Shown here: positions 14,750 through 64,000 of the stretch, piece by piece
How positions within the stretch are numbered: the stretch's first letter is position 1
Layout: each line of letters opens with the position of its first letter
Source of the DNA: an uncultured Phycisphaeraceae bacterium
GTDB lineage: Bacteria > Planctomycetota > Phycisphaerae > Phycisphaerales > UBA1924
Length of the DNA stretch: 64,000 nucleotides
Assembly: GCA_964391865.1 (NCBI GenBank)
Contig: CAYMNQ010000003.1
Span: 1-64,000 of the forward strand
Reading direction: 5' to 3'
Position numbers and translations under genes: made by a program
Notes under the pieces: generated by a model
What the model was told of the DNA's origin: nothing
Database searches by the model: none
What the model saw: only the letters and a program-made list of their open reading frames with translations

Positions 14750-15784
14750 ATGAACGTTCTCGTCACCGGCGGCGCCGGGTACATCGGGTCTCACGCGAGC
14801 CAGCGGCTGCTGCGCGATGGTCACTCGGTCAGCGTGATCGACAACCTGTTCCGCGGGCACGAGCGCGCGATCGACCTGCTGCGCACGATGCCGGGGGTGA
14901 CGGCGGAGCGCCTCGCGTTCTTCAAGGGCGATGTGGGCGACCGGGCGCTGGTCGAGCGCGTGCTCCGCGAGCGGAAGATCGAGGCGGTGATGCACTTCGC
15001 CGCCATGGCGTACGTGGGCGAGAGCGTGAACGACCCGCTGGCGTACTTCCGCAACAACACGACGGCGACGTTGAACCTGATCGAGGCGGTCGAAGCCGCG
15101 GGCGTGAAGCGGATGGTGTTCAGTTCGACGTGCGCCAGCTACGGCGAGCCGCCGCCGGAGATGATCCCGATCGCGGAGACGTGCCCGCAGAAGCCGATCA
15201 ACCCGTACGGCGCGTCGAAGCTCTTCTGCGAGCGGATGCTGTTTGATTACGCGGCGATGAAGAAGATCAAGGGAGAGGACTTCGCGTTCGCGGCGCCGCG
15301 GTACTTCAATGTCGCCGGGTGCGATCGTTCCGGGCTTCTGGGCGAGGACCACGAGCCGGAGACGCACCTGATCCCCGTGATTCTGCAGGCGGTGCTGGGC
15401 AAGCGCGACGCGATCACGATCTTCGGCACCGACTACCCGACGCCCGACGGCACGTGCATCCGCGACTATGTGCATGTTGAGGATCTGGTAGATGCGCACG
15501 TGCACGTGATGAACGCGCTGAAGCCGGGGGACACAAGGACGTACAACCTGGGCATCGGGCGCGGCTACTCGGTGCGCGAGGTGATCGACTCGGTGAAGCG
15601 CGTGACGGGGCGGAACTTCACGGTGAAGGAGGGCGCTCGGCGGGCGGGCGACCCGCCGACGCTGTTCGCGGATGCGTCGAAGATCAAGAGGGAACTGGGG
15701 TGGGAGGCGAAGATCCGCTCGATTGATGAGATCGTGGCGACGGCGTGGAAGTGGTTTGAGAAGAACCCGGGGGGGTACAGATAG
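14750..15784 (+). CDS. galE: UDP-glucose 4-epimerase
   Basis: MNVLVTGGAGYIGSH Rossmann start; YxxxK context (YGASKLFCE); GalE-length SDR. AAGGAG lies 8 nt upstream. Confidence 0.85.
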   Translation: MNVLVTGGAGYIGSHASQRLLRDGHSVSVIDNLFRGHERAIDLLRTMPGVTAERLAFFKGDVGDRALVERVLRERKIEAVMHFAAMAYVGESVNDPLAYFRNNTTATLNLIEAVEAAGVKRMVFSSTCASYGEPPPEMIPIAETCPQKPINPYGASKLFCERMLFDYAAMKKIKGEDFAFAAPRYFNVAGCDRSGLLGEDHEPETHLIPVILQAVLGKRDAITIFGTDYPTPDGTCIRDYVHVEDLVDAHVHVMNALKPGDTRTYNLGIGRGYSVREVIDSVKRVTGRNFTVKEGARRAGDPPTLFADASKIKRELGWEAKIRSIDEIVATAWKWFEKNPGGYR

Positions 15785-15816
15785 TTTTGAGTTGAGAGTT
15801 TTGAGCTTGGAGCCGG
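15785..15816. repeat. left arm of imperfect inverted repeat flanking the four-helix-bundle gene
   Basis: TTTTGAGTTGAGAGTTTTGAGCTTGGAGCCGG. Its reverse complement begins CCGGCTCCAAGCTCAAAA and pairs with the right arm at 16238..16271. Confidence 0.5.
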
Positions 15817-15841
15817 AATTAATGGGCGGCGGGGGAGTGTC

Positions 15842-16219
15842 GTGCAGGACTATCAGAAACTCGTGGTGTGGCAGCGGGCTCACGCGCTGGCGCTTTCGAT
15901 CTACGAATTGACGCGCGAGTACCCGCCCGACGAGCGATTTGGGCTCACCTCGCAGACGCGACGCTGTGCGGTGTCGATCGCGTCAAACATCGCCGAGGGG
16001 AGCGGGAGGGCGACCGATCGCGACTTCGCGCAGTTCCTTCATATCGCGGTTGGATCGACGAACGAACTGGAGTACCAGTTGCTGCTCGCGCGTGATCTTG
16101 GGTTTATCAGCGCCTCGCACGGAGACGTGATCGCCGCTGAAACAGTCGAAGTTCGGCGGATGCTGATCGCATTGATCGGGACCGTTCGCAGGGCCAATAC
16201 GCGACAGACGGCGTCGTAG
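15842..16219 (+). CDS. four-helix-bundle protein (TIGR02436 / 23S-rRNA-IVS-type protein)
   Basis: MQDYQKLVVWQRAHALALSIYELTREYP...SQTRRCAVSIASNIAEGSGR is the hallmark sequence of this family. Lower GC than its neighbours. GGGGGAG RBS before GTG 15842. Confidence 0.8.
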   Translation: MQDYQKLVVWQRAHALALSIYELTREYPPDERFGLTSQTRRCAVSIASNIAEGSGRATDRDFAQFLHIAVGSTNELEYQLLLARDLGFISASHGDVIAAETVEVRRMLIALIGTVRRANTRQTAS

Positions 16220-16237
16220 TTGGGGCGTTGAATCTGT

Positions 16238-16271
16238 CCGGCTCCAAACTTCAAACTCAAAGCTCTCAACC
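16238..16271. repeat. right arm of the inverted repeat flanking the four-helix-bundle gene
   Basis: CCGGCTCCAAACTTCAAACTCAAAGCTCTCAACC. Its first 10 nt are exactly complementary to the left arm; the remainder is imperfect and built of CTCAAA-type units. Confidence 0.5.
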
Positions 16272-39795: not shown

Positions 39796-39941
39796 GCGGT
39801 CGCGGTTCGGGTCGGAGTTCCTCGGCTCATTGATCGTGCAGCTACGGCGGATTGTGTCACAGTTCGGGCGTTTATGCGGCCGATGGAGTGTTGATACTAC
39901 ACTCCGCCCGTCTCGCCTCTTTTCGCTTCAAGACTCCCCGC

Positions 39942-40646
39942 ATGACCCCCCACACGAACGACAAACTCCACCTCGGCTGCGGGCTCACCGCGCCACCCAC
40001 CTGGCTGAACGTCGACGGATCGTGGGGCGCGCGTCTCGCGAAATACCCGCTCATCAAGAAGTGTCTTGCCGCTGTCGGCGTCGTGAAGAAGCACCAGGAC
40101 GAGATCTCCTGGAGCCGCGACATTGTCATCGCCGACCTCACGAAGCCGCTGCGCTTCCCCACCGGCCGGTTCACCGCGGTGTACGCCTCGCACACACTCG
40201 AACATCTCTATCTCGATCAGGCCGACGCACTGCTCCGCGAGAGCTTCAGGGTGCTTAAGCCGGGTGGCGTGGCCCGCTTCGTCGTGCCCGATGTCTTCGC
40301 CATCCTCGAGGAGTACTACGGGCGCCAGAATCTCGAGGGCATCTACTACCCCGCCGCTGACAAGTCGCGCGCCGACCGACTGAACATGCGCCTGCTCATG
40401 CACCCCTGGAACGCACCCCGCGGCAACTTCCTCTGGCGCGCCTACAACGCCGCTATGAACTTCCACGACCACAAATGGATGTACGACACCGACTCGCTCG
40501 CCGACCACATGCGCGCCGCCGGCTTCGTGAACGTCCAGCCCCGCGGCTACCTCGAGAGCGCCATCCCCGACCTCGCCGATGTCGAACGGCGCGAGCGTGT
40601 CGAAAGGGGCGTCGGCGCGGTCTGCGAAGGCGTGAAACCATCCTGA
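39942..40646 (+). CDS. class I SAM-dependent methyltransferase (copy 1 of tandem pair)
   Basis: KLHLGCGL motif I; RVLKPGGVARFVVPD motif. About 65% identical to the next gene. Confidence 0.7.
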   Translation: MTPHTNDKLHLGCGLTAPPTWLNVDGSWGARLAKYPLIKKCLAAVGVVKKHQDEISWSRDIVIADLTKPLRFPTGRFTAVYASHTLEHLYLDQADALLRESFRVLKPGGVARFVVPDVFAILEEYYGRQNLEGIYYPAADKSRADRLNMRLLMHPWNAPRGNFLWRAYNAAMNFHDHKWMYDTDSLADHMRAAGFVNVQPRGYLESAIPDLADVERRERVERGVGAVCEGVKPS

Positions 40647-40658
40647 ACCCGAGCCGCC

Positions 40659-41363
40659 GTGCCAACCCCCACCCACGACAAACTCCACCTCGGCTGCGGG
40701 CTCGTCACGCCGCCCGATTGGCTCAACGTCGACGGCTCGTGGAACGCGCGCCTCAATAAAGTCCCCGGCGTGCGCCCGCTCCTCGGCGCGCTGGGCGTCC
40801 TCGGCAAACGCGAACGCGGCACCGCCTGGAGCACGAGCGTTTACTCAGCGAATCTCAACAAGCGCCTGCCGTGGGCCGACGCGTCATTCACCGCCGTGTA
40901 CTGCTCGCACACGCTCGAGCACATGTACCTCACGAAGGGCCAGGAACTGCTCCTCGAGTGCCGGCGCGTCCTCAAACCGGGCGGCGTGGCCCGCTTCGTC
41001 GTCCCCGACCTCAAGACCATCGTGCAGGAGTACCTCGGCGGCCCGCGCCTCGATCACTGTTTCCCGGAGTCGCCGCGGAACGCGCCCCCCGCCGATCGGA
41101 TGAACGACCGGCTGCTCTACCACGAGCGCTTCCCGCTCAAGGGCAGCATCCTCTGGCGGATGTACTCCGCCGCCTTCGGCTTCCACTGGCACAAGTGGAT
41201 GTACGACTCCGACTCGCTCATCCATCACATGCGCCAGGCGGGCTTCGATGACGTGCGCGAACATCCGGTCTTCGACAGCCGCATCCCCAACATCGAAGGC
41301 ATCGAACGCCGCGAGCGCGTCGCCGACGGCGGCGGCATCGCCGTCGAGGGCGTGCGTGAGTAA
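40659..41363 (+). CDS. class I SAM-dependent methyltransferase (copy 2 of tandem pair)
   Basis: Same motifs as copy 1. GTG start 12 nt after the previous stop. Confidence 0.7.
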   Translation: MPTPTHDKLHLGCGLVTPPDWLNVDGSWNARLNKVPGVRPLLGALGVLGKRERGTAWSTSVYSANLNKRLPWADASFTAVYCSHTLEHMYLTKGQELLLECRRVLKPGGVARFVVPDLKTIVQEYLGGPRLDHCFPESPRNAPPADRMNDRLLYHERFPLKGSILWRMYSAAFGFHWHKWMYDSDSLIHHMRQAGFDDVREHPVFDSRIPNIEGIERRERVADGGGIAVEGVRE

Positions 41364-41604
41364 ACTCGACGGTTTTCACGCCGCACAAACATAACCTGAA
41401 CCGGACGATAACACGCTCCCGCGCCGTCCCCAAGTCGCAGTCGCCCGCTGATCCGGCCGATGGACCATCCGCCGCCGCGTGCGTCGGGCGGGTCCGCTAT
41501 CCTTGACGCCCCTCTTCGCCGGCGCGGTGGGCGCTCGACGACAGTTCCCCTGCGGGGCCGGGGCCGTGCCGCGTTCCTTGTCTTCCTTTTCGAGGAATCC
41601 CCTC

Positions 41605-42582
<978 letters not shown>

Positions 42583-42585
42583 GAA

Positions 42586-42619
42586 TTCACCACAGAGGAC
42601 ACAGAGAGCACAGAGGTGG
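42586..42619. repeat. inverted copy of a ~30-bp repeat (GTGCTCTCTGTGTYCTCTGTGGTGAA family)
   Basis: ttcaccacagaggacacagagagcacagaggtgg. Its reverse complement matches 43155..43188 at about 30/33 positions. Includes a GAATTC site. Confidence 0.5.
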
Positions 42620-42646
42620 TTCAGAGTTGGGAATGGGTTCAGACCG

Positions 42647-43015
42647 ATGCACGAGCAGTTGACAGAACGGATCATCGGCGCGGCGATCGAGGTGCATCGC
42701 GCGCTGGGGCCGGGCCTGCTCGAATCCGCGTACGAGGCGTGCCTCTGCCACGAACTCTCGAAGCAGGGGATTGCATTCCAACGCCAGGCCGAAATGCCGG
42801 TGGTCTACGACGGCGAGCGGATCGACTGCGGCTACCGGCTCGATCTCGTCGTCGAGGGCTCCGTTATCGAGGAATTGAAGAGCGTCGAAGAACTCTCCCC
42901 GATCCACGAAGCCCAACTGCTTACTTACCTCAGGCTCTCCGGCTTGAAGGTCGGCTTGCTCATCAACTTCAACGTCAATCTCCTCAAGGACGGCGTGAAA
43001 CGCCGGGTGATGTAG
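42647..43015 (+). CDS. GxxExxY protein (PD-(D/E)xK-superfamily, IVS-associated type)
   Basis: [37 protein letters not shown]...[19 protein letters not shown] is the family hallmark. Lower GC. Flanked by the inverted repeats above and below. Confidence 0.8.
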
Positions 43016-43154
43016 ACACTTTGCCTTTACGCCCTCGCAACGCATGGCGGCCACAACAACTACAAACTGATTCTGTTCGTCATCGCTCCCTTCCTCCCGC
43101 TGGCTTTCCGGTTCTTTGTCTCGTCTGGTTCTGACCTGAATTCAATCAGATTTC

Positions 43155-43188
43155 CAACTCCGTGCTCTCTGTGTTCTCTGTGGTGAAA
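43155..43188. repeat. direct copy of the ~30-bp repeat, forming the 5' leader/RBS of ugd
   Basis: ccaactccgtgctctctgtgttctctgtggtgaa followed by AGGTTTGAAGATG. Confidence 0.5.
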
Positions 43189-43197
43189 GGTTTGAAG

Positions 43198-44541
43198 ATG
43201 CGACTGACCATGGTGGGTACCGGCTATGTGGGTCTCGTGACCGGCGTGTGCTTCAGCAACACCGGCAACGATGTCATCTGCCTCGACACCGATAAACGCA
43301 AGATCGACATCCTCCTCGGTGGCGGATGCCCCATCTACGAGCCGGGCCTCACCGAGATGATGGAGAAGAACGTGCAGGCGGGCCGCCTGCACTTCACCAC
43401 CGACGCCGCCAGCGCCTACAAGAACGCCCAGATGATCTTCATCTGCGTCGGCACGCCCACGGGCGAGAACGGCGAGACCAACATGAGCTACGTCTGGGGC
43501 GCCGCCGACGCCATCGGGCAGGCGATCAAGGCGCTCGGCCCGAACCAGGAGCCGAAGGTCGTCGTCGTCAAGTCCACCGTCCCCGTCGGCACCACGCTCG
43601 CCGTCAAGGAGCGCATCAAGAAGATCGTCGGCGATCTCCCCTTCAGCGTCGCCGACAACCCCGAGTTCCTCAAGGAAGGCGCCGCGATCAACGACTTCAT
43701 GAAGCCCGACCGCGTGGTCTGCGGCGTGGAAGACGAGCGCACCGGCGACCTCATGCGCGAACTCTACGACCCCTTCGTCCGCCAGGGGCACCCCATCTAC
43801 ATCATGGACGTGCTCTCTGCCGAGATGGTCAAGTACGCCAGCAACAACTTCCTCGCCACCAAGATCAGCTTCATCAACGAGATGGCCGCCCTGTGCGAAG
43901 CCTACGGCGCCGACATCGGCAAGGTCCGCGAGGGCATGTGCGCCGACAAACGCATCGGCAACCAGTTCCTCTACCCCGGCCTCGGCTACGGCGGGTCTTG
44001 CTTCCCCAAAGACACGCTCGCGTGCATCATGATGGGCAACCAGAAGAAGGTCGCCACGCAGCTCTCGCAAGCCGTGCACGATGTGAACCAGCGCCAACGC
44101 AAGCTCTTCTGGAACAAAATCACCGGCCACTTCGGCGGCGAGAGTTCGCTGAAGGGCAAGACGCTCGCCTTCTGGGGCATGGCGTTCAAGCCGCACACCG
44201 ACGACATCCGCGAAGCCCCCGCCGTCGATCTCATGCTCTGGGCCAAGCAGGCCGGCGCGAAGGTCCGCGGCTTCGACCCCGTCGCCGCCGAGAACGTCGA
44301 GCGCGAAAACCCCAAAGCCTTCGAAATCTCCGACGGGCTGTACGAAACCGCCCGCGGCGCCGATGCCCTCATCATCAGCACCGACTGGGACGAGTTCAAG
44401 CAGCCCGACTTCGGCAAGCTGAAGGAACTCATGAAGTCCGCCGTCATCTTCGACGGCCGGAACCTCTACAAGCGCGACGCGATGGAGCGGGCGGGGTTCA
44501 ACTACTACTCCGTCGGGCGGGCGCCGGTGAAGGCGCGATAG
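43198..44541 (+). CDS. ugd: UDP-glucose 6-dehydrogenase
   Basis: MRLTMVGTGYVGLVTG. Catalytic GGSCFPKD. Full three-domain UGDH. Confidence 0.85.
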   Translation: MRLTMVGTGYVGLVTGVCFSNTGNDVICLDTDKRKIDILLGGGCPIYEPGLTEMMEKNVQAGRLHFTTDAASAYKNAQMIFICVGTPTGENGETNMSYVWGAADAIGQAIKALGPNQEPKVVVVKSTVPVGTTLAVKERIKKIVGDLPFSVADNPEFLKEGAAINDFMKPDRVVCGVEDERTGDLMRELYDPFVRQGHPIYIMDVLSAEMVKYASNNFLATKISFINEMAALCEAYGADIGKVREGMCADKRIGNQFLYPGLGYGGSCFPKDTLACIMMGNQKKVATQLSQAVHDVNQRQRKLFWNKITGHFGGESSLKGKTLAFWGMAFKPHTDDIREAPAVDLMLWAKQAGAKVRGFDPVAAENVERENPKAFEISDGLYETARGADALIISTDWDEFKQPDFGKLKELMKSAVIFDGRNLYKRDAMERAGFNYYSVGRAPVKAR

Positions 44542-47612: not shown

Positions 47613-48836
47613 TCAGGCGACGGTTTCCTCGCCGCCGTCATCGCCCTCCGCCCCCACCCCGGCTCCCGCCGTCTCGCGCGGGAACCAGCGCAGACCGCCC
47701 GCTTCGAACTCATCCAGCGCCGCGCGCACCCCCGCCGCGTCCGGCGCGGTGCGCACCCGCTCGCGCAGCGGCTTGCACGGCCCCAGCTTCTTCGCGAACC
47801 ACGCGATCCGCCGCCGGATGTGATTCATCGCGTACCGCTCGTCGCGGTATTCGAGCATCAGGGCGAAGTACCGGCGGATGATCGCGAGTTTTTCCGCGAG
47901 CGGGGGGTCGGCGGGGGAAAGTCCAAAGTCCAAAGTCACAAAGTCCAAATGCTGGCGTGACCCGGTCTGGCTCGGGCTCAACTGTCTTTCAATTGCACTT
48001 TGCTCATTTGCACTTTGGACTTTCTGAACCTCCCACCCCTGCCGGAAGATCCACGGCGCCGCCAGCGCCCCGCGCCCGATCATCACGCCGTCGCAGCCGG
48101 TGCGCTCCATCATGTCGATCACGCCGAGGGCGGTGGTCACGTCGCCGTTGCCGAGCACGGGGATCGCGCCGTCAACCGATTCGACCACGCGACGGATGCC
48201 CTCGTGGTTCACGCCGCCCGTAAACTTCTGCTCCGTCGTGCGCCCATGCACCGTGACGAGTTGAATCCCGGCGCCCGCGAGATCGCGCGCCAGCCGGGGG
48301 GCGACGAACCGCTCGTTATCCCAGCCGAGGCGCATCTTCGCGGTGACGGGCACGCGCCCGGCGCTGGCGCGCTCCGCCGCGCGGACCACCATCTCCGCGA
48401 GGTGCACCGTGGCGCACGGGTCGCACAGCAGCATCGACCCGCCGTTCTTCTTCGTCACTTTGTCGACGGGGCAGCCCATGTTGATGTCGATCACCGTCGC
48501 GCCGTGATCGACGGCCCAGCGCGCCCCCTCCGCCAGAATCTCCCCCTCCGCCCCGTACAGCTGCATGCACAAGGGCTTGTCCAGCTCGTTCGTCGCCGCC
48601 AGATCAAGCGAGTGCATCGACCCGCGCAAGAGCCCGTGCGGCGAGAGCAAATCCGTACACGCGAGGCCAAGCCCGCCCTGCTCGCGGCACACAATCCGGA
48701 ACGCCAAATCGCAATACCCCGCGATCGGCGCGAGCAACAGATTGCTCCGCAGCGTCACCGCCCCGATCGTCAGCGGCACGCCGACACGCGGATTCGCGCG
48801 AGCGCTTAAGCGGGTTGGCTGGGAGGTGTCGTGCAT
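47613..48836 (-). CDS. dus: tRNA-dihydrouridine synthase carrying an in-frame ~36-codon insertion
   Basis: Dus motifs LAPIAGYCDLAFR, DINMGCP, GRGALAAPWIF. Between PWIFRQ and the conserved C-terminal helix lies QGWEVQKVQSANEQSAIERQLSPSQTGSRQHLDFVTLDFGLS, encoded by the low-GC palindromic element at 47917..48024. Confidence 0.75.
   Translation of the reverse strand: MHDTSQPTRLSARANPRVGVPLTIGAVTLRSNLLLAPIAGYCDLAFRIVCREQGGLGLACTDLLSPHGLLRGSMHSLDLAATNELDKPLCMQLYGAEGEILAEGARWAVDHGATVIDINMGCPVDKVTKKNGGSMLLCDPCATVHLAEMVVRAAERASAGRVPVTAKMRLGWDNERFVAPRLARDLAGAGIQLVTVHGRTTEQKFTGGVNHEGIRRVVESVDGAIPVLGNGDVTTALGVIDMMERTGCDGVMIGRGALAAPWIFRQGWEVQKVQSANEQSAIERQLSPSQTGSRQHLDFVTLDFGLSPADPPLAEKLAIIRRYFALMLEYRDERYAMNHIRRRIAWFAKKLGPCKPLRERVRTAPDAAGVRAALDEFEAGGLRWFPRETAGAGVGAEGDDGGEETVA
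47917..48024. repeat. MITE-like low-GC inverted-repeat element inserted in-frame within dus
   Basis: GAAAGTCCAAAGTCCAAAGTCACAAAGTCCAAATG ... CATTGCACTTTGCTCATTTGCACTTTGGACTTTC. The outer 13 bp are perfectly complementary. About 108 bp, a multiple of 3. GC far below its surroundings. Confidence 0.5.
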
Positions 48837-49525
48837 GAAGAGGAGGGAATGGTAGCCCCGCCGCATTCCGGGCAGCGGGCGGCGCTGAGGCCGTGAAGGT
48901 CGTAGCCGCACGCGGGGCAAAGTCCGCGCTGGCGGCGGCGCAGCCGGCGAGTCGTCGGAACAACAGTGATCGCCGCGAGCCACAGCGCGGCATAGAACAG
49001 GGCATCAATCAACATCGCGGGACAGAGTGCCGACGTCGGTAGAAGAATCAGCGAGTGGTGAGGATTCGCCGATCGCTTGGTCCAGTTCGGAACGCGCAGC
49101 CCTTCACGTACTCGCGTGGCGCTATACGGCTCGTCGGGGTAGTCAGCCGTTACGGCCGAACCACGAAGGCACTTGAACGGCCAACCTGCGCGGTTCACAT
49201 GAATGAAGTGAGTGATCGTCGGGAGATTGTCACGCCACCCAGCCGTCCACCGGGGCGCGACATCGATCCTGCGCTCAAAGTAGTACGCCGGGTGTGTCAT
49301 GGCGCGATAGGGATGGAGCCCCAACGACGAGTAGCCGGTCCACTCCTGAAGTTGCCCGTGCCAATACTGTTGTTCCGGGCTTCGAAACTGCGCGCCATCG
49401 GGCGGACGCGTGGCGAACGGTCCGAATCGAAGCTGAGCGGACATCGAGATTCCCCATGCCACCGCCACCGTCGTCAACACGCCGAGCGCGAGACACACCA
49501 CCACTCGCCACACCCAGCGCCGCAT
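48806..49525 (-). CDS. membrane protein with periplasmic domain and cytoplasmic C-terminal zinc ribbon (family member P2)
   Basis: N-term MRRWVWRVVVCLALGVLTTVAVAWG (TM1). Periplasmic segment contains GWPFKC. TM2 is followed by RRLRRRQRGLCPACGYDLHGLSAARCPECGG. Start chosen by homology to the adjacent paralog. Confidence 0.55.
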   Translation of the reverse strand: MRRWVWRVVVCLALGVLTTVAVAWGISMSAQLRFGPFATRPPDGAQFRSPEQQYWHGQLQEWTGYSSLGLHPYRAMTHPAYYFERRIDVAPRWTAGWRDNLPTITHFIHVNRAGWPFKCLRGSAVTADYPDEPYSATRVREGLRVPNWTKRSANPHHSLILLPTSALCPAMLIDALFYAALWLAAITVVPTTRRLRRRQRGLCPACGYDLHGLSAARCPECGGATIPSSSCTTPPSQPA

Positions 49526-49526
49526 C

Positions 49527-50219
49527 TCAAGGCTCCGTGACAACGACCGCCGACTTAGGCTGCGCCCATGATGCAATGACCGAATCACCACACTCAGGGC
49601 AACGAGAAGAGTGGAGGCCGACCAGACAATACCCGCACCCGCCGCATTGGTTTCGCTGCTGCCTCCGCCATCGAATCAGGATGCGCGGGAATGGGATGAG
49701 TCCAGCCAAGAGAATTGCATAGAAGATCGAGCTGAGGGCCAGCCCGCGCACGATCGGTGAGTGTGGCAGTGGGAATCGAGCCGGAGTGGTGTTGGTGGCC
49801 GTTGGCGGTGTGTAACCAGTGAAGAGAACAGTGCTGCTCAAGTCGATGCGGCTCTTTCGTTCGCTCGATTGGACACATCTGAATGGCCATCCATAGGCCG
49901 TGAGTGTCAGATCAAAGTCCTCGGCGGTAAGAGCGCCTTCGGCGGTGCTCACAGCCCAATCCGCAAGTGCAACTTCGGGCCCGATGGCGACGCAGAGGCA
50001 ACTGCTCGGTGTTCTCAGCCGGTAACGATCACTGATCCAATCTCTCTCGCGAACACCGTCGATGCTGGGCTCTCGGTCGATCAGAATGACGCGGTTCACA
50101 CGCAGCGATGGCCCGACCGGTGCTGCGCCGCGCATCAGTATTGATACCCACGGCAGCGCGACCGTTGTCAGCACGCCGAGTGCCAAGCACACCGGGATTC
50201 TCTTCACCCATCGCCGCAC
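49527..50219 (-). CDS. membrane protein with periplasmic domain and C-terminal zinc ribbon (family member P3, tandem with P2)
   Basis: MRRWVKRIPVCLALGVLTTVALPW; GWPFRC; RWRRQQRNQCGGCGYCLVGLHSSRCPECGDS. Its stop lies 1 nt from the P2 start. Confidence 0.55.
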   Translation of the reverse strand: MRRWVKRIPVCLALGVLTTVALPWVSILMRGAAPVGPSLRVNRVILIDREPSIDGVRERDWISDRYRLRTPSSCLCVAIGPEVALADWAVSTAEGALTAEDFDLTLTAYGWPFRCVQSSERKSRIDLSSTVLFTGYTPPTATNTTPARFPLPHSPIVRGLALSSIFYAILLAGLIPFPRILIRWRRQQRNQCGGCGYCLVGLHSSRCPECGDSVIASWAQPKSAVVVTEP

Positions 50220-50250
50220 GCGCGACCTCCCGCGCCGAACGTCGCAGTCT

Positions 50251-50372
50251 TCCGGCTCCCAGCCTCAAGCTCCAAGCTTCAAGCTTCCGGTCTCCGGCCC
50301 CCAACTCAAAACCCCCAACCCAAAACCCGCAGCACTCAGCACTCGTTCCTCAGCACTCAGCTCCCCCGCTCC
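50251..50372. repeat. low-complexity direct-repeat tract upstream of P3
   Basis: cctcaagctccaagcttcaagcttcc; ccaactcaaaacccccaacccaaaaccc; gcagcactcagcactcgttcctcagcactcagc. Resembles the CTCAAA/CTCCAA units of the IRs at 15785 and 16238. Confidence 0.4.
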
Positions 50373-50833
50373 GCCGCCGCCTTCATCGCGTTCAAATCCC
50401 CCTCGAGCATTTTCTTCATCGCGCCCTTCATCATCAGCCCCATCAGCGGCGACATGATCTTCGCCATCAGCGTCACCGGTCGCGCCGTCGTCGTCATCAC
50501 GACGTCGGTTCCGCCGGAACCACCGGGACTACCCGCGCCGCCCGTCGGCGTGAATGTGAAGCGCGTCGCGTACTCCACGCCGCAGGATGTGCAGCCGACG
50601 GTGTACGCCCGCCCCGGCTGGAACTCGGTGAACTCCATCGTCTCCGTCGCCGTCTTGCCGAACATCACGCGGCTCTCGCGGAAGCGCGTGCCCGTGCCGA
50701 TCGGCCCGTCGGTCAGCACCTCCAGCGCGGTGATCCCCTTGATGTGCTTCGGCGCCTCGCGCACATTCGAGAAGACCTCGAACACGCGATCGACCGGCGC
50801 TTCAACGCGCACGCGGCTCTCGAACATCGCCAT
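50357..50833 (-). CDS. SRPBCC-superfamily protein (polyketide-cyclase/START-like)
   Basis: 158 aa, MAMFESRVRVEAPVDRVFEVFSN.. typical of Polyketide_cyc2-like proteins. GGAGG RBS 8 nt upstream. Confidence 0.6.
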   Translation of the reverse strand: MAMFESRVRVEAPVDRVFEVFSNVREAPKHIKGITALEVLTDGPIGTGTRFRESRVMFGKTATETMEFTEFQPGRAYTVGCTSCGVEYATRFTFTPTGGAGSPGGSGGTDVVMTTTARPVTLMAKIMSPLMGLMMKGAMKKMLEGDLNAMKAAAERGS

Positions 50834-50880
50834 GGCTTCAACCTCCGCGCCCCCAGCGTCTCCGCGGTGAATCTTCTTCC

Positions 50881-51192
50881 TCAAACCCCCGGTGTCGCGT
50901 CGAGCTGCGCCGCGAGATCGAAATCCTTCTGCGTGATCCCGCCCGCGTCGTGCGTGTTGAGCGAGAGCGTGACCTTGTTCCAGCGGATGAGGATGTCCGG
51001 GTGGTGCTGCACCTTCTCGGCGAGTTCCGCCGCGCGATTCACGAACTTCATGGCGGCGATGAAATCCTTGAACTGGTACGTCCGCTGGATCGACCCCGCC
51101 ACCTCGGCCCATTGCGGCAGAGGCTTCAACTGGTCCGCGATCTGCTCTTCCGTCAGCTTCTGCGGGGCTTTGGTGCTCGCTTTCGCCGCCAT
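50881..51192 (-). CDS. phhB: pterin-4a-carbinolamine dehydratase
   Basis: LTEEQIADQLKPLPQWAEV...YQFKDFIAAMKFVNRAAELAEKVQHHPDILIRWNKVTLSLNTHDAGGIT matches the PCD/DCoH family. Confidence 0.8.
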   Translation of the reverse strand: MAAKASTKAPQKLTEEQIADQLKPLPQWAEVAGSIQRTYQFKDFIAAMKFVNRAAELAEKVQHHPDILIRWNKVTLSLNTHDAGGITQKDFDLAAQLDATPGV

Positions 51193-51463
51193 GGTGATCG
51201 CCTCCCTCGCCGCCCAGCGGCGTGAACCACCAGCCTATCGCGCGGCGAACGCCCGTGCCGCGCTCTTGTTGACGCATTGAACCACGGAGGCACGGGGGAC
51301 GCGGAGGAGAGATTCTTCAACGCGAAGATCGCGAAGGGCGCAAAGAGATGAAGGCAAAAGAGAGGAGATGACAAGAGAACGGGATAGACCAAGAACAAAC
51401 TCGCTCTGACCCCCGACGCATTTTCCCTCTTCGCGCTCTCTGCGATCTTCGCGTTATAAATCC

Positions 51464-51495
51464 CCGTTCCGTGCTCTCCGTGTCTCTGTGGTGAA
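51464..51495. repeat. third copy of the ~30-bp GTGCTCTC..CTGTGGTGAA repeat, forming the gluQ leader
   Basis: ccgttccgtgctctccgtgtctctgtggtgaatcttgaag precedes the gluQ start, as the copy at 43155 precedes ugd. Confidence 0.45.
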
Positions 51496-51497
51496 TC

Positions 51498-52484
51498 TTG
51501 AAGACGCCCACTCCCACCACCCGCCTTGCCCCGTCGCCCACCGGCGCGCTGCACCTGGGCAACGCGCGCACGTTCCTCATCAACTGGGCGCTCGCGCGCC
51601 GGCTCGGCTGGCGCATCGTGCTGCGCATCGAAGACCTCGACGGCCCGCGCATCAAGCCCGGCGCCGCCGAGGCGTGCATCGACACGCTCCGCTGGCTCGG
51701 CATCGACTGGGATACCGGCCCCATCATCCAGTCGCACGACCTGTCGCCGTACCTCGATGCGATGCGCACACTTGCCGCCCGCGCCGCCGCGTACCCCTCC
51801 GAACTCACGCGCTCGGAGATCGAAGCCGCCGCCAGCGCCCCGCAGGAACTCGGCGCCGATCCGGGCGCGCCCGTCGGCACGGGCGAAATCCGCTTCCCGC
51901 CCGAGCTGCGCCCCGCGCTGCACCCGCGCGAGTTCGTCGACGCCGAGACGAACTGGCGCTTCGCCGTCCCCGACCGGGCGGTGGAGTTCGCCGACGACTT
52001 CGCGGGCCCGCAGCGCGGCCGCCCCATCGACACCATCGGCGACTTCGTGATCTGGACCAAGCGCGCGCAGCCGTCGTACCAGCTCGCGGTCGTGGTGGAT
52101 GATGCGCGCCAGGGCGTGACGCACATCGTCCGCGGGGACGACCTGCTCGACTCCGCCGCGCGTCAACTGCTGCTCTACGAAGCACTGAATCTCGCGCCGA
52201 TCCCGCGCTACTGCCACCTGCCGCTGGTCGTCGGCACCGACGGCCGCCGGCTCGCGAAGCGCCACGGCGACACCCGGCTTGATACCTACCGCGCCCGCGG
52301 CGTCCCCGCCGAGCGCGTCATCGGGCTGCTCGCCTACTGGAGCGGCGTGACCAACCCCGACCAACCTCCGAAGCCCATGTCCGCCGCCGAATACGCCGCC
52401 GGGTTTGAGCTGAACCGACTCCCCCGCGCGCGGGTAACCTTCACCAACAACGACGATCGCTGGCTCACGAAAACCAACTCCTGA
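51498..52484 (+). CDS. gluQ: glutamyl-Q tRNA(Asp) synthetase
   Basis: RLAPSPTGALHLGNARTFLINW (HIGH-type motif). Truncated GluRS catalytic domain only, about 328 aa. Non-ATG (TTG) start per the track. Confidence 0.8.
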   Translation: MKTPTPTTRLAPSPTGALHLGNARTFLINWALARRLGWRIVLRIEDLDGPRIKPGAAEACIDTLRWLGIDWDTGPIIQSHDLSPYLDAMRTLAARAAAYPSELTRSEIEAAASAPQELGADPGAPVGTGEIRFPPELRPALHPREFVDAETNWRFAVPDRAVEFADDFAGPQRGRPIDTIGDFVIWTKRAQPSYQLAVVVDDARQGVTHIVRGDDLLDSAARQLLLYEALNLAPIPRYCHLPLVVGTDGRRLAKRHGDTRLDTYRARGVPAERVIGLLAYWSGVTNPDQPPKPMSAAEYAAGFELNRLPRARVTFTNNDDRWLTKTNS

Positions 52485-58095: not shown

Positions 58096-58210
58096 GGCGT
58101 TTGACCTTGAGCATCAGGGCATGCTCGGGCGTCCAGTTGCGGGGTGCTTGATCCTGAGCGTCGGAGCACGCTCAGGCGTCCGTGGTGCTGATTTCTGCGG
58201 GGTATTTGGT
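58096..58210. repeat. hairpin-containing repeat overlapping the 3' end of zinc-ribbon gene P4 (two tandem GAGCRT-n-AYGCTC-RGGCGTCC units)
   Basis: gagcatcagggcatgctcgggcgtcc and cctgagcgtcggagcacgctcaggcgtccgtggtgctgatttctgcggggtatttggtgg. The second unit recurs at 59086..59170. Confidence 0.45.
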
Positions 58211-58936: not shown

Positions 58937-59085
58937 GGTGATTGAGGATAGGTGTGGCGGCGTTGTTCGTGGCGGGGACAACGAGGGTTCGCGCGGGCTT
59001 GGGCGTTCGTTGGTGGGATCGGCGCTGGTGTTGATCTTCGGCACCGAGGTCGGTCAGAGCACCGACCTCGGTGGCACGCGGCGTG

Positions 59086-59170
59086 GCCCTGAGCGTCGGA
59101 GCATGCTCGGGCGTCCGGGGCTGCGGCTTCTCGATGCTGTCTGCGGGGTTTTGCGGGGTATTTGTGATCC
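59086..59170. repeat. direct-repeat copy upstream of P4
   Basis: cctgagcgtcggagcatgctcgggcgtccggggctgcgg...tgtctgcggggttttgcggggtatttgtga matches 58147..58210 over about 60 nt. Confidence 0.45.
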
Positions 59171-60564: not shown

Positions 60565-62385
60565 TCAATTGCAGCTCGAACCCCAGTGCTGGATGACGCG
60601 AGCGATATCGCCAAGGCCGATCACGCCCGAGTGGTCGAGGTCGATCCGTGCGCAGATGATTTCGTCGGTGCTGTTCCAGGTTTGGATGATCGCGGCGATA
60701 TCGGGGAGGCCGACCATCAGGTCGGTGCTGGCGTCGCCCGGGCAGGGGAAGAGGAACTCGTGCGCGCCGGCGTCGACGATGAGGGCGCCGATCGGCGCTC
60801 CGGTGTCGGGGGTCGAGGGATCGTCGGCGAAGCGCGGGCAGTTGGTGAAGTCGAGCGCGATTCCGGCGGGGAGGAACGAGTTGTCGCCGCGGTCGATGGC
60901 GGGGGAGTTGGGGGAGAGTCGGAGGTCATCGTCGATGCTGCCGGGGATGTTGTCGGGGCCGTCGGCGTCGACGAACTGAGGGTTGGCGTTGGAGTTGCCG
61001 ATGCCGGGGAACTGAGAGGCCCACCCTTCGATCAGGCAGCGGCTGGCGGTGATTGTGCCGGCGAAGAACGTGGTGCCGAACGCGTCGATTGGCTCCAGCG
61101 TGCTCTGGATGTCCCAGACGATCGAGTTGCTGATGTGAACCGGGCCGATGGTGCCGAGGAACGAGAACACTTGTGAAGGATTTCCATCATTCCATGCGGT
61201 GCAGTTGATGATTTGCGCTGGTGCCTGCGTAATAAGGGTCGCCCCGCCGCCGGTGCGACCGTTGCCGGTGAAGAGGCTGTTGGTGATGCGGAGGCCGGGG
61301 CAGAGGCTTTCGACGACGATGGCCGCCCCGCCGTCGGCCGTGCCCTCGTTGCCGACGAAGAGGCAGCGGTCGATGGTGACTGCAGCGGCGGTGGCGCGGA
61401 GCGCGCCGGCGTTCCCGCCGCTGGTGTTGCGGATGAAGCGTGATCGGCGGATGTCGGCAGTTCCGCCGCCGATGCGGATGCCCACGCCGTTGGTGGCGAT
61501 CTGGCACTGCATGGAGAAGAGACAGTCCTCGACGGTGAGGTGGCTGGTGAAATCCAGATCGCCGATGTAGTTGATGCCGGAGGCGATGCCCATGCCGTTG
61601 ATCCCGCCGGTTTGGATGTCGGCTTCGACAAAGGTGCATCGGCGGACGGTGGTGTTCGACCCGGCGCGGGAGCTGATGTTTGCCCCGGTGCCGGCGCGGT
61701 TGCCGACGAAGGAGCAGTCCTCGATGAGGGGCGCGGCGTTGAGGGCTGAGATGCCCGCGCCCTCGAGCATTTTGAACTGTCCGTTGTCGCGGAAGTGACA
61801 GGCTCGGATGGTCGGCGCGCCGGCGAGAATGAGCACGCCGCCGCCGGTGCCGCTGCCGGGGTTGTCGAAAGAGAATTCGCCGCCCGTGCCGCGCTCGATG
61901 GTGAAGCCGTCGAGGAGGGTGGTTGTGCCGGCGTTGTTGAAGCGGACGACGTGGTCGCTGTTGTCGTCCAGTGTCGCGAAGACGTGCGATAGATCGTCGC
62001 TGTTCAGGTCGGCGGTGAGGATGGTGGGATGAGCCGCGGGATTGCGATGGTCCGCGCTGGTTTCCGTGCCGACGAACCCGCCGAGGAGCGCGACGCCGCT
62101 GGGGATGACGAGGGAGATGGTGGTCGGGCCGTTGGGTGGCGCGGGGGCGTAGGTGCCCTGCGCGACCCAGAGTTCATCGCCCGGTTGCGCGAGGACGAGG
62201 GCGCTCTGGACGGCGAGGCGGCCCTGGAAGGCGTTGGGCCAGGAGGTGCCGTCGTTCGCGCCCGTGGTGAGTTCGGCGTTGACGAAGATGACGGCCGCAT
62301 CGGCGGGCGGCGTCAGCGCTGCGATCGCGCCGACGAATGCGACGGAGCCAAAGAGCATGCGAGCGTTTCGATTGAAGTGCTTCAT
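60565..62385 (-). CDS. right-handed parallel beta-helix repeat protein (pectate-lyase-fold, secreted) with C-terminal dockerin-type module
   Basis: Signal peptide MKHFNRNARMLFGSVAFVGAIAALTPPADA. Repeated NxxGxxxGG/beta-helix rungs (IRIGGGTADIRRSRFIRNTS...). C-term CPGDASTDLMVGLPDIAAIIQTWN...IDLDHSGVIGLGDIARVIQHWGSSCN. The ATG overlaps the upstream paralog's stop within TCATGA. Confidence 0.7.
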   Translation of the reverse strand: MKHFNRNARMLFGSVAFVGAIAALTPPADAAVIFVNAELTTGANDGTSWPNAFQGRLAVQSALVLAQPGDELWVAQGTYAPAPPNGPTTISLVIPSGVALLGGFVGTETSADHRNPAAHPTILTADLNSDDLSHVFATLDDNSDHVVRFNNAGTTTLLDGFTIERGTGGEFSFDNPGSGTGGGVLILAGAPTIRACHFRDNGQFKMLEGAGISALNAAPLIEDCSFVGNRAGTGANISSRAGSNTTVRRCTFVEADIQTGGINGMGIASGINYIGDLDFTSHLTVEDCLFSMQCQIATNGVGIRIGGGTADIRRSRFIRNTSGGNAGALRATAAAVTIDRCLFVGNEGTADGGAAIVVESLCPGLRITNSLFTGNGRTGGGATLITQAPAQIINCTAWNDGNPSQVFSFLGTIGPVHISNSIVWDIQSTLEPIDAFGTTFFAGTITASRCLIEGWASQFPGIGNSNANPQFVDADGPDNIPGSIDDDLRLSPNSPAIDRGDNSFLPAGIALDFTNCPRFADDPSTPDTGAPIGALIVDAGAHEFLFPCPGDASTDLMVGLPDIAAIIQTWNSTDEIICARIDLDHSGVIGLGDIARVIQHWGSSCN

Positions 62386-64000
62386 GAGCAGCTTTCTCCC
62401 CAGTGCTGGATGACGAGGGCGATATCGCCGAGGCCGATGACGCCCGAGTGATCGAGGTCGATGCGCGTGCAGATGGTTTCGTCGGTGCTGTTCCAGGTTT
62501 GGATGATCGCGGCGATATCGGGGAGGCCGACCATCAGGTCGGTGCTGGCGTCGCCCGGGCAGGGGAAGAGGAACTCGTGCGCGCCGGCGTCGACGATGAG
62601 GGCGCCGATCGGCGCTCCGGTGTCGGGGGTCGAGGGATCGTCGGCGAAGCGCGGGCAGTTGGCGAAGTCGAGCGCGATGCCGGCGGGGAGGAACGAGTTG
62701 TCGCCGCGGTCGATGGCGGGAGAACCAGCGGAGAGTCGGAGGTCATCGTCGATGGTGCCGGGGATGTTGTCGGGGCCGTCGGCGTCGGCGAAGAGGGGGT
62801 TCGCGTTGATGGTGCCGTTGCCGGGGAATTGGCCGGTCCAGGTTTGGATGAGCGAACGGTTGACGGTGAAAGCGGCCGAGCCGAGTCGGAGCAGGTCGGC
62901 GAACTGTGGTGTGTTGCCGAGATTGCCGCGGAAGATGCAGTTGTGGATGTTCGCGGTGGTGTTGTTGCCGCTAGCGATGAGCGCGGCGTGGAACATGTTG
63001 GCTCCGCCGTTGTTGGCGATGGTGCAGTTGGTCATGGTGAACGAAGCGCCTTGCGAGAAGATGGTGGAGAATCCCAGACGGTCATTGCCGGAGAAGACGG
63101 AGTTGGTGATGGTGATGGCCGAGGCACCGAGGGTGTAGATGGCGGCACCGCCGTCGCCGGCGCCTTCGCATCCGACGAAGAGGCAGTGGTCGACGGTGGT
63201 GACGGAGAGCGATCCCGGCGTGTCGAAGGAACCGGCGCTGATCCCGCCGCCGCTGCCGGCGTGAGTGCAGTTGATGAATCGGCATCGGCGGATGGTCGCT
63301 TCGCCGCTCTCGACTTTGATGCCGAGGCCGTCGCCGGCGATGAAGAAGGTGGACGGGAAGGAGAAGTCGCAGTCCTCGATGAGGATGGTGGAGGGCGGGC
63401 TGATGAAACTGCCGATCCCGACGCCGGAGGCGATGCCGAGCCCGGCGCCGAAGTTCGTTTCAAGAGTGGCATCGGTGAAAGAGCAGCCGCGGACGACGGA
63501 GTTCGAGCCGTGGTTGTTGAGATTCGCGCCGACGGCGGCGCGGTTGCGTGTGAAGTGGCAGTGTTCGACGGTGGTGTTGCCGGCGGCGATGTGGAGCCCG
63601 CCGCCGAAACTCTCGGCGGAGTTTTCGCGGATGAGGCAGTTGCGGATGGTGGGCGCGCCAGCAAGGACGATGATCCCGCCGCCGGCACCGATGTCGGGTT
63701 TGACGGCGGGCAGGGCGCGGGAGAGTGCGAAGCCGCGCTCGATGGTGAAGCCGTCGATGACGGTGCCCGCCCCGCCGATGGTGGTGACGATGTGGAAGAC
63801 GTTGTCATTCATGGGCGGGTCGATGGGGGTGTCGTCGTTGTTGAGGTCGCCGGTGAGGATGGTGGGGTTGGCGCTGTGGTTGCGTTGATCGGCGGCGGTC
63901 TCGATGCCGAGAAACCCGCCGAGGAGCGCGACGCCGTTGGGGACGTTGAAGGTGCTGAGCGGCGGAGCGCCGGGCGCTCCGGGGGCGTAGGTGCCTTGAG
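62382..64000 (-). CDS. paralogous beta-helix dockerin protein, 5'-truncated by the window edge
   Basis: C-terminal 200 aa nearly identical to 60565..62385 (..CPGDASTDLMVGLPDIAAIIQTWNSTDETICTRIDLDHSGVIGLGDIALVIQHWGESCS). Homology to the paralog continues upstream of the track's first Met (63812) to position 64000. Confidence 0.7.
   Translation of the reverse strand, partial: QGTYAPGAPGAPPLSTFNVPNGVALLGGFLGIETAADQRNHSANPTILTGDLNNDDTPIDPPMNDNVFHIVTTIGGAGTVIDGFTIERGFALSRALPAVKPDIGAGGGIIVLAGAPTIRNCLIRENSAESFGGGLHIAAGNTTVEHCHFTRNRAAVGANLNNHGSNSVVRGCSFTDATLETNFGAGLGIASGVGIGSFISPPSTILIEDCDFSFPSTFFIAGDGLGIKVESGEATIRRCRFINCTHAGSGGGISAGSFDTPGSLSVTTVDHCLFVGCEGAGDGGAAIYTLGASAITITNSVFSGNDRLGFSTIFSQGASFTMTNCTIANNGGANMFHAALIASGNNTTANIHNCIFRGNLGNTPQFADLLRLGSAAFTVNRSLIQTWTGQFPGNGTINANPLFADADGPDNIPGTIDDDLRLSAGSPAIDRGDNSFLPAGIALDFANCPRFADDPSTPDTGAPIGALIVDAGAHEFLFPCPGDASTDLMVGLPDIAAIIQTWNSTDETICTRIDLDHSGVIGLGDIALVIQHWGESCS

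Follow-up and report, generated by a model that had tools for sequence, protein, structure and literature searches.

Why should the intercistronic spacer between a UDP-xylose-synthase-like gene (uxs) and the UDP-glucose 6-dehydrogenase gene (ugd) of an uncultured Phycisphaeraceae bacterium be taken up, from one arm of an inverted repeat to the other, by the gene of a minimal nuclease, and what kind of element would that be? I ask this of a stretch of 64,000 nucleotides (nt) from contig CAYMNQ010000003.1, forward strand, hereafter the window, whose positions supply all coordinates below. The element is an imperfect palindrome whose arms are built of tandem heptads and whose loop carries a gene for a GxxExxY protein. 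I consider it probable, if only modestly so, that it is a selfish cassette of the intervening-sequence type. Its parts and its neighbors are the following.

41479 to 42582: gene for a UDP-xylose-synthase-like short-chain dehydrogenase/reductase (SDR) or dehydratase, uxs, the left flank of the cassette
42586 to 43187, plus strand: the whole cassette (5' arm, GxxExxY gene, 3' untranslated stretch, 3' arm), filling the uxs-ugd intercistronic spacer
42586 to 42619: 5' purine-rich arm, TTCACCACAGAGGACACAGAGAGCACAGAGGTGG
42647 to 43015, plus strand: gene for the GxxExxY protein, 122 amino acids (aa), with a minimal PD-(D/E)xK nuclease fold (TIGR04256, PF13366)
43154 to 43187: 3' pyrimidine-rich arm, the complement of the 5' arm, CCAACTCCGTGCTCTCTGTGTTCTCTGTGGTGAA
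43198 to 44541: gene for UDP-glucose 6-dehydrogenase, ugd, the right flank of the cassette

The two arms are 34 nt each, complementary at 31 of 34 positions (91%) and spaced 534 nt apart, which confirms the inverted repeat that an earlier note on this DNA had claimed; the 26-nt consensus offered there fits both arms with 0 mismatches and was matched in 0 of 100 dinucleotide-preserving shuffles. Reading inwards, the 5' arm consists of TTCAC, three CACAGAG heptads (42591-42615) separated by the 2-nt spacers GA and AG, and a final GTGG, and it begins 3 nt past the uxs stop codon, while the 3' arm stops 10 nt short of the ugd ATG. The terminal dodecamer CTCTGTGGTGAA has 3 sites in the window where 0.13 would be expected, and when the RNA of 42575-43200 is folded, the outer long stem closes both the minimum free energy (MFE) and the centroid structures (-247 kcal/mol, z -4.6). 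One convincing gene lies between the arms, as the earlier note had held, and its further description of a segment lower in G+C holds for the arms and untranslated parts (0.51-0.55) and fails for the gene itself (0.62-0.64, with flanks at 0.62-0.69). An Rfam search at the gathering threshold returned no rRNA or other Rfam family within the window.

The protein encoded in the loop matches TIGR04256 at 160.7 bits (cut-off 35) and PF13366 (PDDEXK_3) at 155.7 bits (cut-off 22; E 8e-46), and the residues G23, E26 and Y29, together with D66, E76 and K78 of the PD-(D/E)xK signature, are invariant across the family alignment. Its AlphaFold model (predicted local distance difference test, pLDDT, 91) finds Cas4 SSO0001, lambda exonuclease and LHK-Exo as top Foldseek matches, all of them weak (E 2.5e-3, template-modelling (TM) score ~0.5), and a sequence search of the PDB returned no solved relative. 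The gene is under purifying selection, the ratio of nonsynonymous to synonymous substitution (dN/dS) against orthologues being 0.10-0.21. The family is also large and widely dispersed: 25,123 cluster representatives (clusters at 50% identity) were recovered at E <= 1e-3, proteins ~70% identical occur in different phyla, and the one survey that treats them lists their function as unknown and describes multiple transfers among bacterial divisions and archaea (PMC3424549). The top-scoring representatives, P0361-P0373, measure 260-295 aa, match over two separate stretches, and are either tandem GxxExxY domains or read-through over two neighboring cassettes. A role in anti-phage defence was considered and rejected, the PADLOC models giving no match for the GxxExxY protein or for the four-helix-bundle protein of a second cassette in the window, and a search of the GxxExxY protein against PHROG gave no match.

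The converse question, whether GxxExxY genes generally reside in such hairpins, was put to 80 metagenomic loci with relatives 58-69% identical to the query, 73 of which were scored, as cassettes, with a strict pattern (a 5' side with two or more C-R-C-N-R-A-G units spaced by 1-3 nt, and a 3' side with their complement). Strict heptad arms stand on both sides of 42 of these 73 genes and on at least one side of 62, and on both sides in 0 of 48 controls. Similarly, when the 300 nt on either side of GxxExxY are compared, the top-scoring inverted repeat has a median score of 45, compared with 20 for mismatched loci, a control that is itself inflated because the arms of different loci resemble each other. 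The general build is an outer TTCACC, three to four tandem C-R-C-N-R-A-G heptads with spacers of 1-3 nt, a loop, and the complement, with arms that mostly leave 5-30 nt to the start and stop codons; the units vary among elements (CACAGAG, CACGGAG, CGCAGAG, CACGAAG, CGCAAAG, CGCCGAG and others), and in most elements one unit type recurs through the heptads of both arms. GxxExxY is co-oriented with the upstream gene in 40 of 50 cases and with the downstream gene in 39 of 55.

Furthermore, the hairpin is a repeat class of its own. When prokaryotic genomes, one for each species, were scanned with the pattern TTCACCACAGAG-N(1-3)-CACRGAG, at least 120 loci came up, and the hosts among the matches listed span Acidobacteriota, Planctomycetota, Chloroflexota, Bacteroidota, several classes of Pseudomonadota, Thermodesulfobacteriota, Cyanobacteria, Chlamydiae, Verrucomicrobiota, Gemmatimonadota, a metagenome-assembled genome (MAG) of Clostridia and one archaeal MAG of Methanotrichaceae. 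The matches also agree in points that the pattern did not ask for: a third heptad is present, the sequence continues A-rich, and an inverted partner usually lies at a distance of 10-250 nt. Most of the loci among the matches listed are hairpins of 60-270 nt without a gene, 59 of them clean, with a median total length of 100 nt; a GxxExxY gene lies within 8 kb in 4 of 120 and between the arms only in locus L102. The spacers that hold these listed hairpins are co-directional in 25 cases, convergent in 12 and divergent in 4 (4 of 41), and the hairpins usually sit no more than a few tens of bases from the ends of open reading frames (ORFs). Hairpins of differing unit type are often nested in one another, and one contig (L085) holds three copies, two of which share their loop sequence besides the arms. 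By E-value, nine hairpin loci drew from Rfam only sub-threshold resemblances to microRNA precursors, which are generic long hairpins. Loop cargo in L017, L031 and L085 was considered and dismissed, inspection suggesting ordinary host genes flanked by two separate hairpins (L031 has three motif copies, and the arm match in L017 scores only 25). In L029, the ~202 nt between CACAGAG arms hold what is apparently another palindromic repeat, with translations such as ...IPAFAGMT... and ...SFRRKPESS...; in that case a heptad hairpin has an unrelated repeat family nested in it.

A repeat with inverted ends that recurs across phyla could be a DNA transposon, its arms serving as terminal inverted repeats for a transposase (GxxExxY itself or one encoded elsewhere), its gene-less copies being miniature inverted-repeat transposable elements (MITEs) and its RNA structure incidental. 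The conservation of the outer end, TTCACC...GGTGAA, from phylum to phylum suits this idea, as do the excess of gene-less over gene-bearing copies, the loop sequence shared by copies within one genome and the nesting; however, none of the junctions inspected shows a target-site duplication (the window and the relatives L124 and L125, the empty sites of L126 and L218 being too diverged to fix the insertion point), and the inner arm units change freely yet stay complementary, which protein-binding terminal repeats do not. The only ORF of the cassette, the 122-aa nuclease core, matches no transposase family in profile searches and, judging from its model, would lack a separate DNA-binding domain, and four-helix-bundle cassettes of the same build contain no nuclease at all. 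Moreover, the scarcity of divergent spacers, combined with the co-orientation of the gene with its neighbors, points to a constraint linked to transcription. I therefore regard a transposon as unlikely. An integron cassette with an attC site was also judged unlikely, because the gene has complementary arms at either end, where an attC site would be a single recombination site 3' of it, although no integrase search was made.

The orthologous uxs-ugd junction of relatives shows how stable the element is and of what parts it is composed. In L001, L002 and L003 (94% and 90% protein identity) the order uxs, arm, GxxExxY, arm, ugd is kept at the same site, with both arms nearly unchanged and the internal untranslated spacers diverged through insertions and deletions. 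The arms are strongly conserved: those of the window and L001 differ at 2 of 68 positions (1 of 34 per arm), whereas the synonymous sites of the three genes differ at 19-30%. The cassette is common to members of a sub-clade of Phycisphaerales, and this shared site, considered with the like arms around GxxExxY genes from many environments, supports the proposal of the earlier note that a cassette is bounded by the inverted repeat and makes it a general one. Further relatives, ordered here by what the junction holds, with the identity of their Ugd to that of the window (BLASTP), are these.

L125, ugd 82%: arms, and a GxxExxY gene 71% identical to the window's
L124, ugd 84%: the same arms, a 93-nt loop and no gene
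L215, ugd 84%: a degenerate hairpin
L219, ugd 82%: other low-complexity repeats
L126 and L218, ugd 82%: neither hairpin nor gene

The junction is thus seen in three states, namely empty, with hairpin only, and with hairpin plus gene, and hairpin and gene can occur apart, since L124 has the hairpin alone and L126 and L218 have neither. The suggestion that the cassette had used the repeat as an insertion target survives these comparisons in altered form. In L219 (1403-1500), GGCCGGGGG repeats are followed by three TGAGGTC units without a complementary arm, which could be what is left of one half of a decayed hairpin, or else a repeat of another kind. In a neighbor-joining tree of Ugd, the hairpin-bearing junctions form one clade with the two empty junctions branching outside, which fits a single insertion, and the gene-bearing junctions (the window and L125) fall on both sides of the gene-less ones, and so an ancestral hairpin plus gene followed by losses is about as parsimonious. 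Hairpin and gene may have come together with later loss of the gene, or the gene may have entered the hairpin twice.

These states raise the alternative that the hairpins are independent elements, either of the repetitive extragenic palindromic (REP) kind that serve between cistrons as RNA stabilisers, terminators or insulators, or MITEs, and that GxxExxY behaves like a homing endonuclease that enters vacant loops of its own hairpin type. Homing endonucleases of the PD-(D/E)xK fold do exist, I-Ssp6803I being an example, and this counts in favor of the idea. So do the vacant hairpin of L124 at a junction where L126 and L218 have none, the evidence from nested hairpins that loops are preferred insertion sites, and the dispersal of ~70% identical proteins and the recorded transfers described above. 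The equal parsimony of an ancestral gene with losses tells against it, as does the lack of a self-splicing intron or intein context, and cleavage of the loop is conjectural. I would give gene entry of this kind a low probability and call it quite unlikely.

The arms were also seen near a third gene, gluQ, where the earlier note had described a further copy of the repeat as a leader. The parts in question are as follows.

51281 to 51306: 5' arm of an outer gene-less hairpin, ACCACGGAGGCACGGGGGACGCGGAG, directly after the stop codon (51278-51280) of the gene at 50108-51280
51319 to 51455: inner hairpin nested in the outer loop, with arms 51319-51347 and 51427-51455 of CGCGAAG-type heptads
51464 to 51495: 3' arm of the outer gene-less hairpin, the third copy of the earlier note, ending 2 nt before the gluQ TTG start at 51498

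The third copy is indeed present, differing from the right arm of the cassette by a 1-nt deletion and a few substitutions and containing one of the dodecamer sites (51484-51495), yet it is not a solitary leader but the 3' arm of a second hairpin: in the MFE fold of 51276-51500 (-101.6 kcal/mol), 51281-51306 pairs in a slipped register with 51464-51492, and the local alignment score of 51281-51306 with its partner was reached by 6 of 1000 shuffles. Within the outer arms, which are of CACGGAG/CACAGAG type, the inner hairpin has arms that are 86% complementary around a 79-nt loop (RNA MFE -53.5 kcal/mol, z -4.6), and the nested pair fills the gluQ spacer from stop to start codon just as the cassette fills that between uxs and ugd. 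The TTG start of gluQ has no visible Shine-Dalgarno sequence before it.

Could the repeat nevertheless be a 5'-untranslated regulatory element shared by ugd and gluQ, into which the cassette landed? The 3' arms do stop just short of the respective start codons, by 10 nt and 2 nt, as such a leader would. In both places, however, the arm is one side of a symmetric hairpin, the 3' one, and its 5' counterpart lies right against the upstream stop codon, the repeat adjoins unrelated genes in many phyla, lies between convergent genes and even inside ORFs, the relatives L126 and L218 have ugd spacers without it, and no Rfam family corresponds to it. The related notion that the right arm supplies the ribosome-binding context of ugd finds no support either, as in relatives the Shine-Dalgarno-like GGAG is placed outside the arm, between it and the ATG. 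A shared leader is therefore very improbable.

The window holds two CAC(A/G)GAG hairpins and three of other unit types in all, and besides the inner hairpin just described, the latter comprise a second gene-bearing element and a hairpin inside a protein gene.

15784 to 16270, plus strand: second gene-bearing hairpin, arms 15784-15817 and 16237-16270 of TTTTGAG-type heptads, 76% complementary
15842 to 16219: gene for a four-helix-bundle protein of the 23S rRNA intervening-sequence family (TIGR02436, 125 bits; PF05635, E 7e-38)
47917 to 48024, minus strand: hairpin within dusB, arms 47917-47951 and 47990-48024 of CAAAGTC/CAAAGTG units, 80% complementary

The four-helix-bundle protein has a distant match to Avd of diversity-generating retroelements, and its cassette sits, judging from the sequence, between two apparently convergent genes. 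Among plasmid-borne four-helix-bundle genes from cyanobacteria, Azospirillum and Riemerella, 6 of 8 have purine-rich periodic arms with their complements, built of lineage-specific units. On plasmid pPg_01 of Pseudanabaena galeata (L208) such a gene lies between cas6 and cas4, flanked by CTAAAAG/CCAAAAG heptad arrays of ~15 units upstream and ~10 downstream. A scan of viral contigs with a single four-helix-bundle protein gave no confirmed relative, and a jackhmmer search over all fetched loci found no four-helix-bundle gene besides that of the window.

The dusB hairpin (RNA MFE -53.7 kcal/mol, z -5.4) is in frame within a gene of the minus strand (47613-48866), in the linker between the triosephosphate isomerase (TIM) barrel (..PWIFRQGWE) and the C-terminal helical domain, and the source annotation of the protein (P0241, 417 aa) runs through it. 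Across 13 orthologues from Phycisphaerales this linker is ~8 aa in two and in most others ~15-50 aa longer, and the longer linkers often contain periodic low-complexity peptides such as KAQIANGQVTNGQIANGQIAN and KVQSANEQSA...LDFVTLDFGLS, which resemble hairpin arms that have been translated, as happens with Rickettsia palindromic elements.

Now returning to the favored reading, a selfish cassette of the intervening-sequence type, its mechanism can be sketched. The cassette would be transcribed within the host operon, its arms would pair in the transcript into a stem of ~26-34 bp with the insert looped out, and RNase III would cut that stem, as it does in 23S rRNA intervening sequences of the same build, separating the uxs and ugd messages and freeing the cassette RNA. 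These steps are proposed because the Coxiella intervening sequence has the same parts in the same order and because a version with an S23p-family gene is present in the window. An insertion whose stem is processed in this way would be harmless and hence tolerated in spacers, and processing would also explain the preference for sites downstream of genes. The gene-less hairpins would be non-autonomous or decayed copies, and the GxxExxY nuclease is the obvious candidate, conjecturally, for mobilisation or homing.

Pairing of the arms as such gains support from covariation: among the outermost 13 arm pairs 6 are compensatory, with 36 double-change cells against 15 +/- 3.8 after shuffling (0 of 500), a figure that is somewhat generous because the choice of arm pairs favors complementarity. 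This generosity is one of several points that weigh against the reading. In 49 cassettes, G-U pairs on the sense strand are not favored among the arm mismatches (54 versus 54), and selection on the arms could consequently act on DNA as well as RNA; the same lack of strand asymmetry suits a transposon. RNase III cleavage at this stem is argued by analogy with the rRNA cases. The vacant loop of L124 retains no gene remnant, its scores being no better than those of shuffles and a protein-level signal being absent, which agrees with entry of the gene into ready-made loops, and the GxxExxY protein of L125 is no closer to that of the window than are proteins from other phyla. The genes of the comparison loci, finally, are crude ORF calls.

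A more ambitious proposal, which I offer as one joint claim and hold to be possible though doubtful, is that GxxExxY nucleases and heptad hairpins make up an unrecognised class of mobile elements across phyla, in which the nuclease recognises the hairpin as a DNA cruciform or an RNA stem and drives its own insertion into the loop or excision from it, the gene-less hairpins are vacant sites or non-autonomous offspring, and the 23S rRNA intervening sequences are only the members that reside in rRNA. With their insert looped out and processed, such elements could persist silently within operons and, when in frame, even within genes.

A few other repeats of the window deserve mention. Three G+C-rich palindromes of ~40 nt (GCxTGAxCCTGAGCGTCGGAGCAyGCTCrGGCGTCC) surround minus-strand ORFs at 58099-58185 and 59081-59120 and are possibly a REP-like family of the source genome. 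At 39852-41363, two ORFs of ~700 nt are adjacent paralogues, 72-80% identical with a spacing of 717 nt, and at 60565-63812, two long minus-strand ORFs, likewise adjacent paralogues, share a stretch of 300 nt that is 94% identical, with a spacing of 1817 nt.

What would be new in all this? The protein families (GxxExxY and four-helix-bundle) and the rRNA intervening sequences are already known. A literature search on GxxExxY, PF13366, TIGR04256 and the motif returned no description of heptad hairpins outside rRNA, and the searchable papers and Rfam contain nothing on a hairpin architecture shared outside rRNA or its link to GxxExxY, nor on the cross-phylum gene-less pool, the nesting or the in-frame residence in dusB. 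If the favored reading is true, the 23S rRNA intervening sequences would be one corner of a much larger population of hairpin-borne cassettes in the operon spacers of many bacterial phyla, two large families of unknown function (GxxExxY and four-helix-bundle/S23p) would gain a concrete one, and RNase III-dependent uncoupling of adjacent cistrons would be predicted. The hairpins also define a large repeat class absent from Rfam, and they probably create spurious ORFs and lengthen real proteins, such as DusB, in MAGs.

How, then, does the cassette compare with systems already described? With REP sequences, bacterial interspersed mosaic elements (BIMEs) and MITE families such as Correia, ERIC, RUP and BOX it shares short palindromes that are intergenic or intercistronic, often near stop codons, multicopy and sometimes nested, and like MITEs and transposons it has terminal inverted repeats. 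Unlike these lineage-specific families, the heptad motif extends from Acidobacteriota to Bacteroidota and to an archaeal MAG, its heptad-array arms drift in concert and a subset has a gene in the loop. The cassette begins with TTCACC, and no 5' tetranucleotide of the GTAG type found in REP sequences was seen in it; nor, in contrast to REP sequences and BIMEs, is a REP-associated tyrosine transposase (RAYT) or parent insertion sequence (IS) known for heptad hairpins, although RAYT genes were not searched for. There are also IS elements that target the loops of REP sequences, for example IS1397, alongside homing endonucleases such as I-Ssp6803I, and the cassette resembles both in placing a nuclease gene in a specific repeated site whose orthologous position is polymorphic, and differs from both in having no intron, intein or transposase. 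Rickettsia palindromic elements are reportedly inserted in frame in protein genes, and the dusB hairpin is likewise a palindromic repeat translated in frame at an inter-domain linker, albeit of a different repeat family, host phylum and unit structure.

The closest system is that of the 23S rRNA intervening sequences which RNase III excises in Coxiella, Leptospira, Salmonella and other bacteria. In Coxiella burnetii the intervening sequence is 428 nt long and forms a stem whose loop holds an S23p (four-helix-bundle) ORF, two to three tandem GACAGAT heptamers lie just upstream of that ORF and vary in number among strains, and cleavage of the stem by RNase III at the first repeat was demonstrated experimentally (PMC4990558). 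The cassette differs in its setting, the spacer of an mRNA between two protein genes rather than helix 25 or 45 of 23S rRNA, in its loop gene, a PD-(D/E)xK nuclease rather than S23p, and in the state of that gene, which is under purifying selection whereas the Coxiella ORF is decaying. It is alike in the long stem formed by an inverted repeat, the tandem heptamers in the 5' arm upstream of the ORF, the loop ORF of ~120 aa, the sporadic distribution and apparent horizontal movement, and a host gene product that has no need of the insert; and the window itself carries an S23p-family gene in a heptad hairpin of its own.

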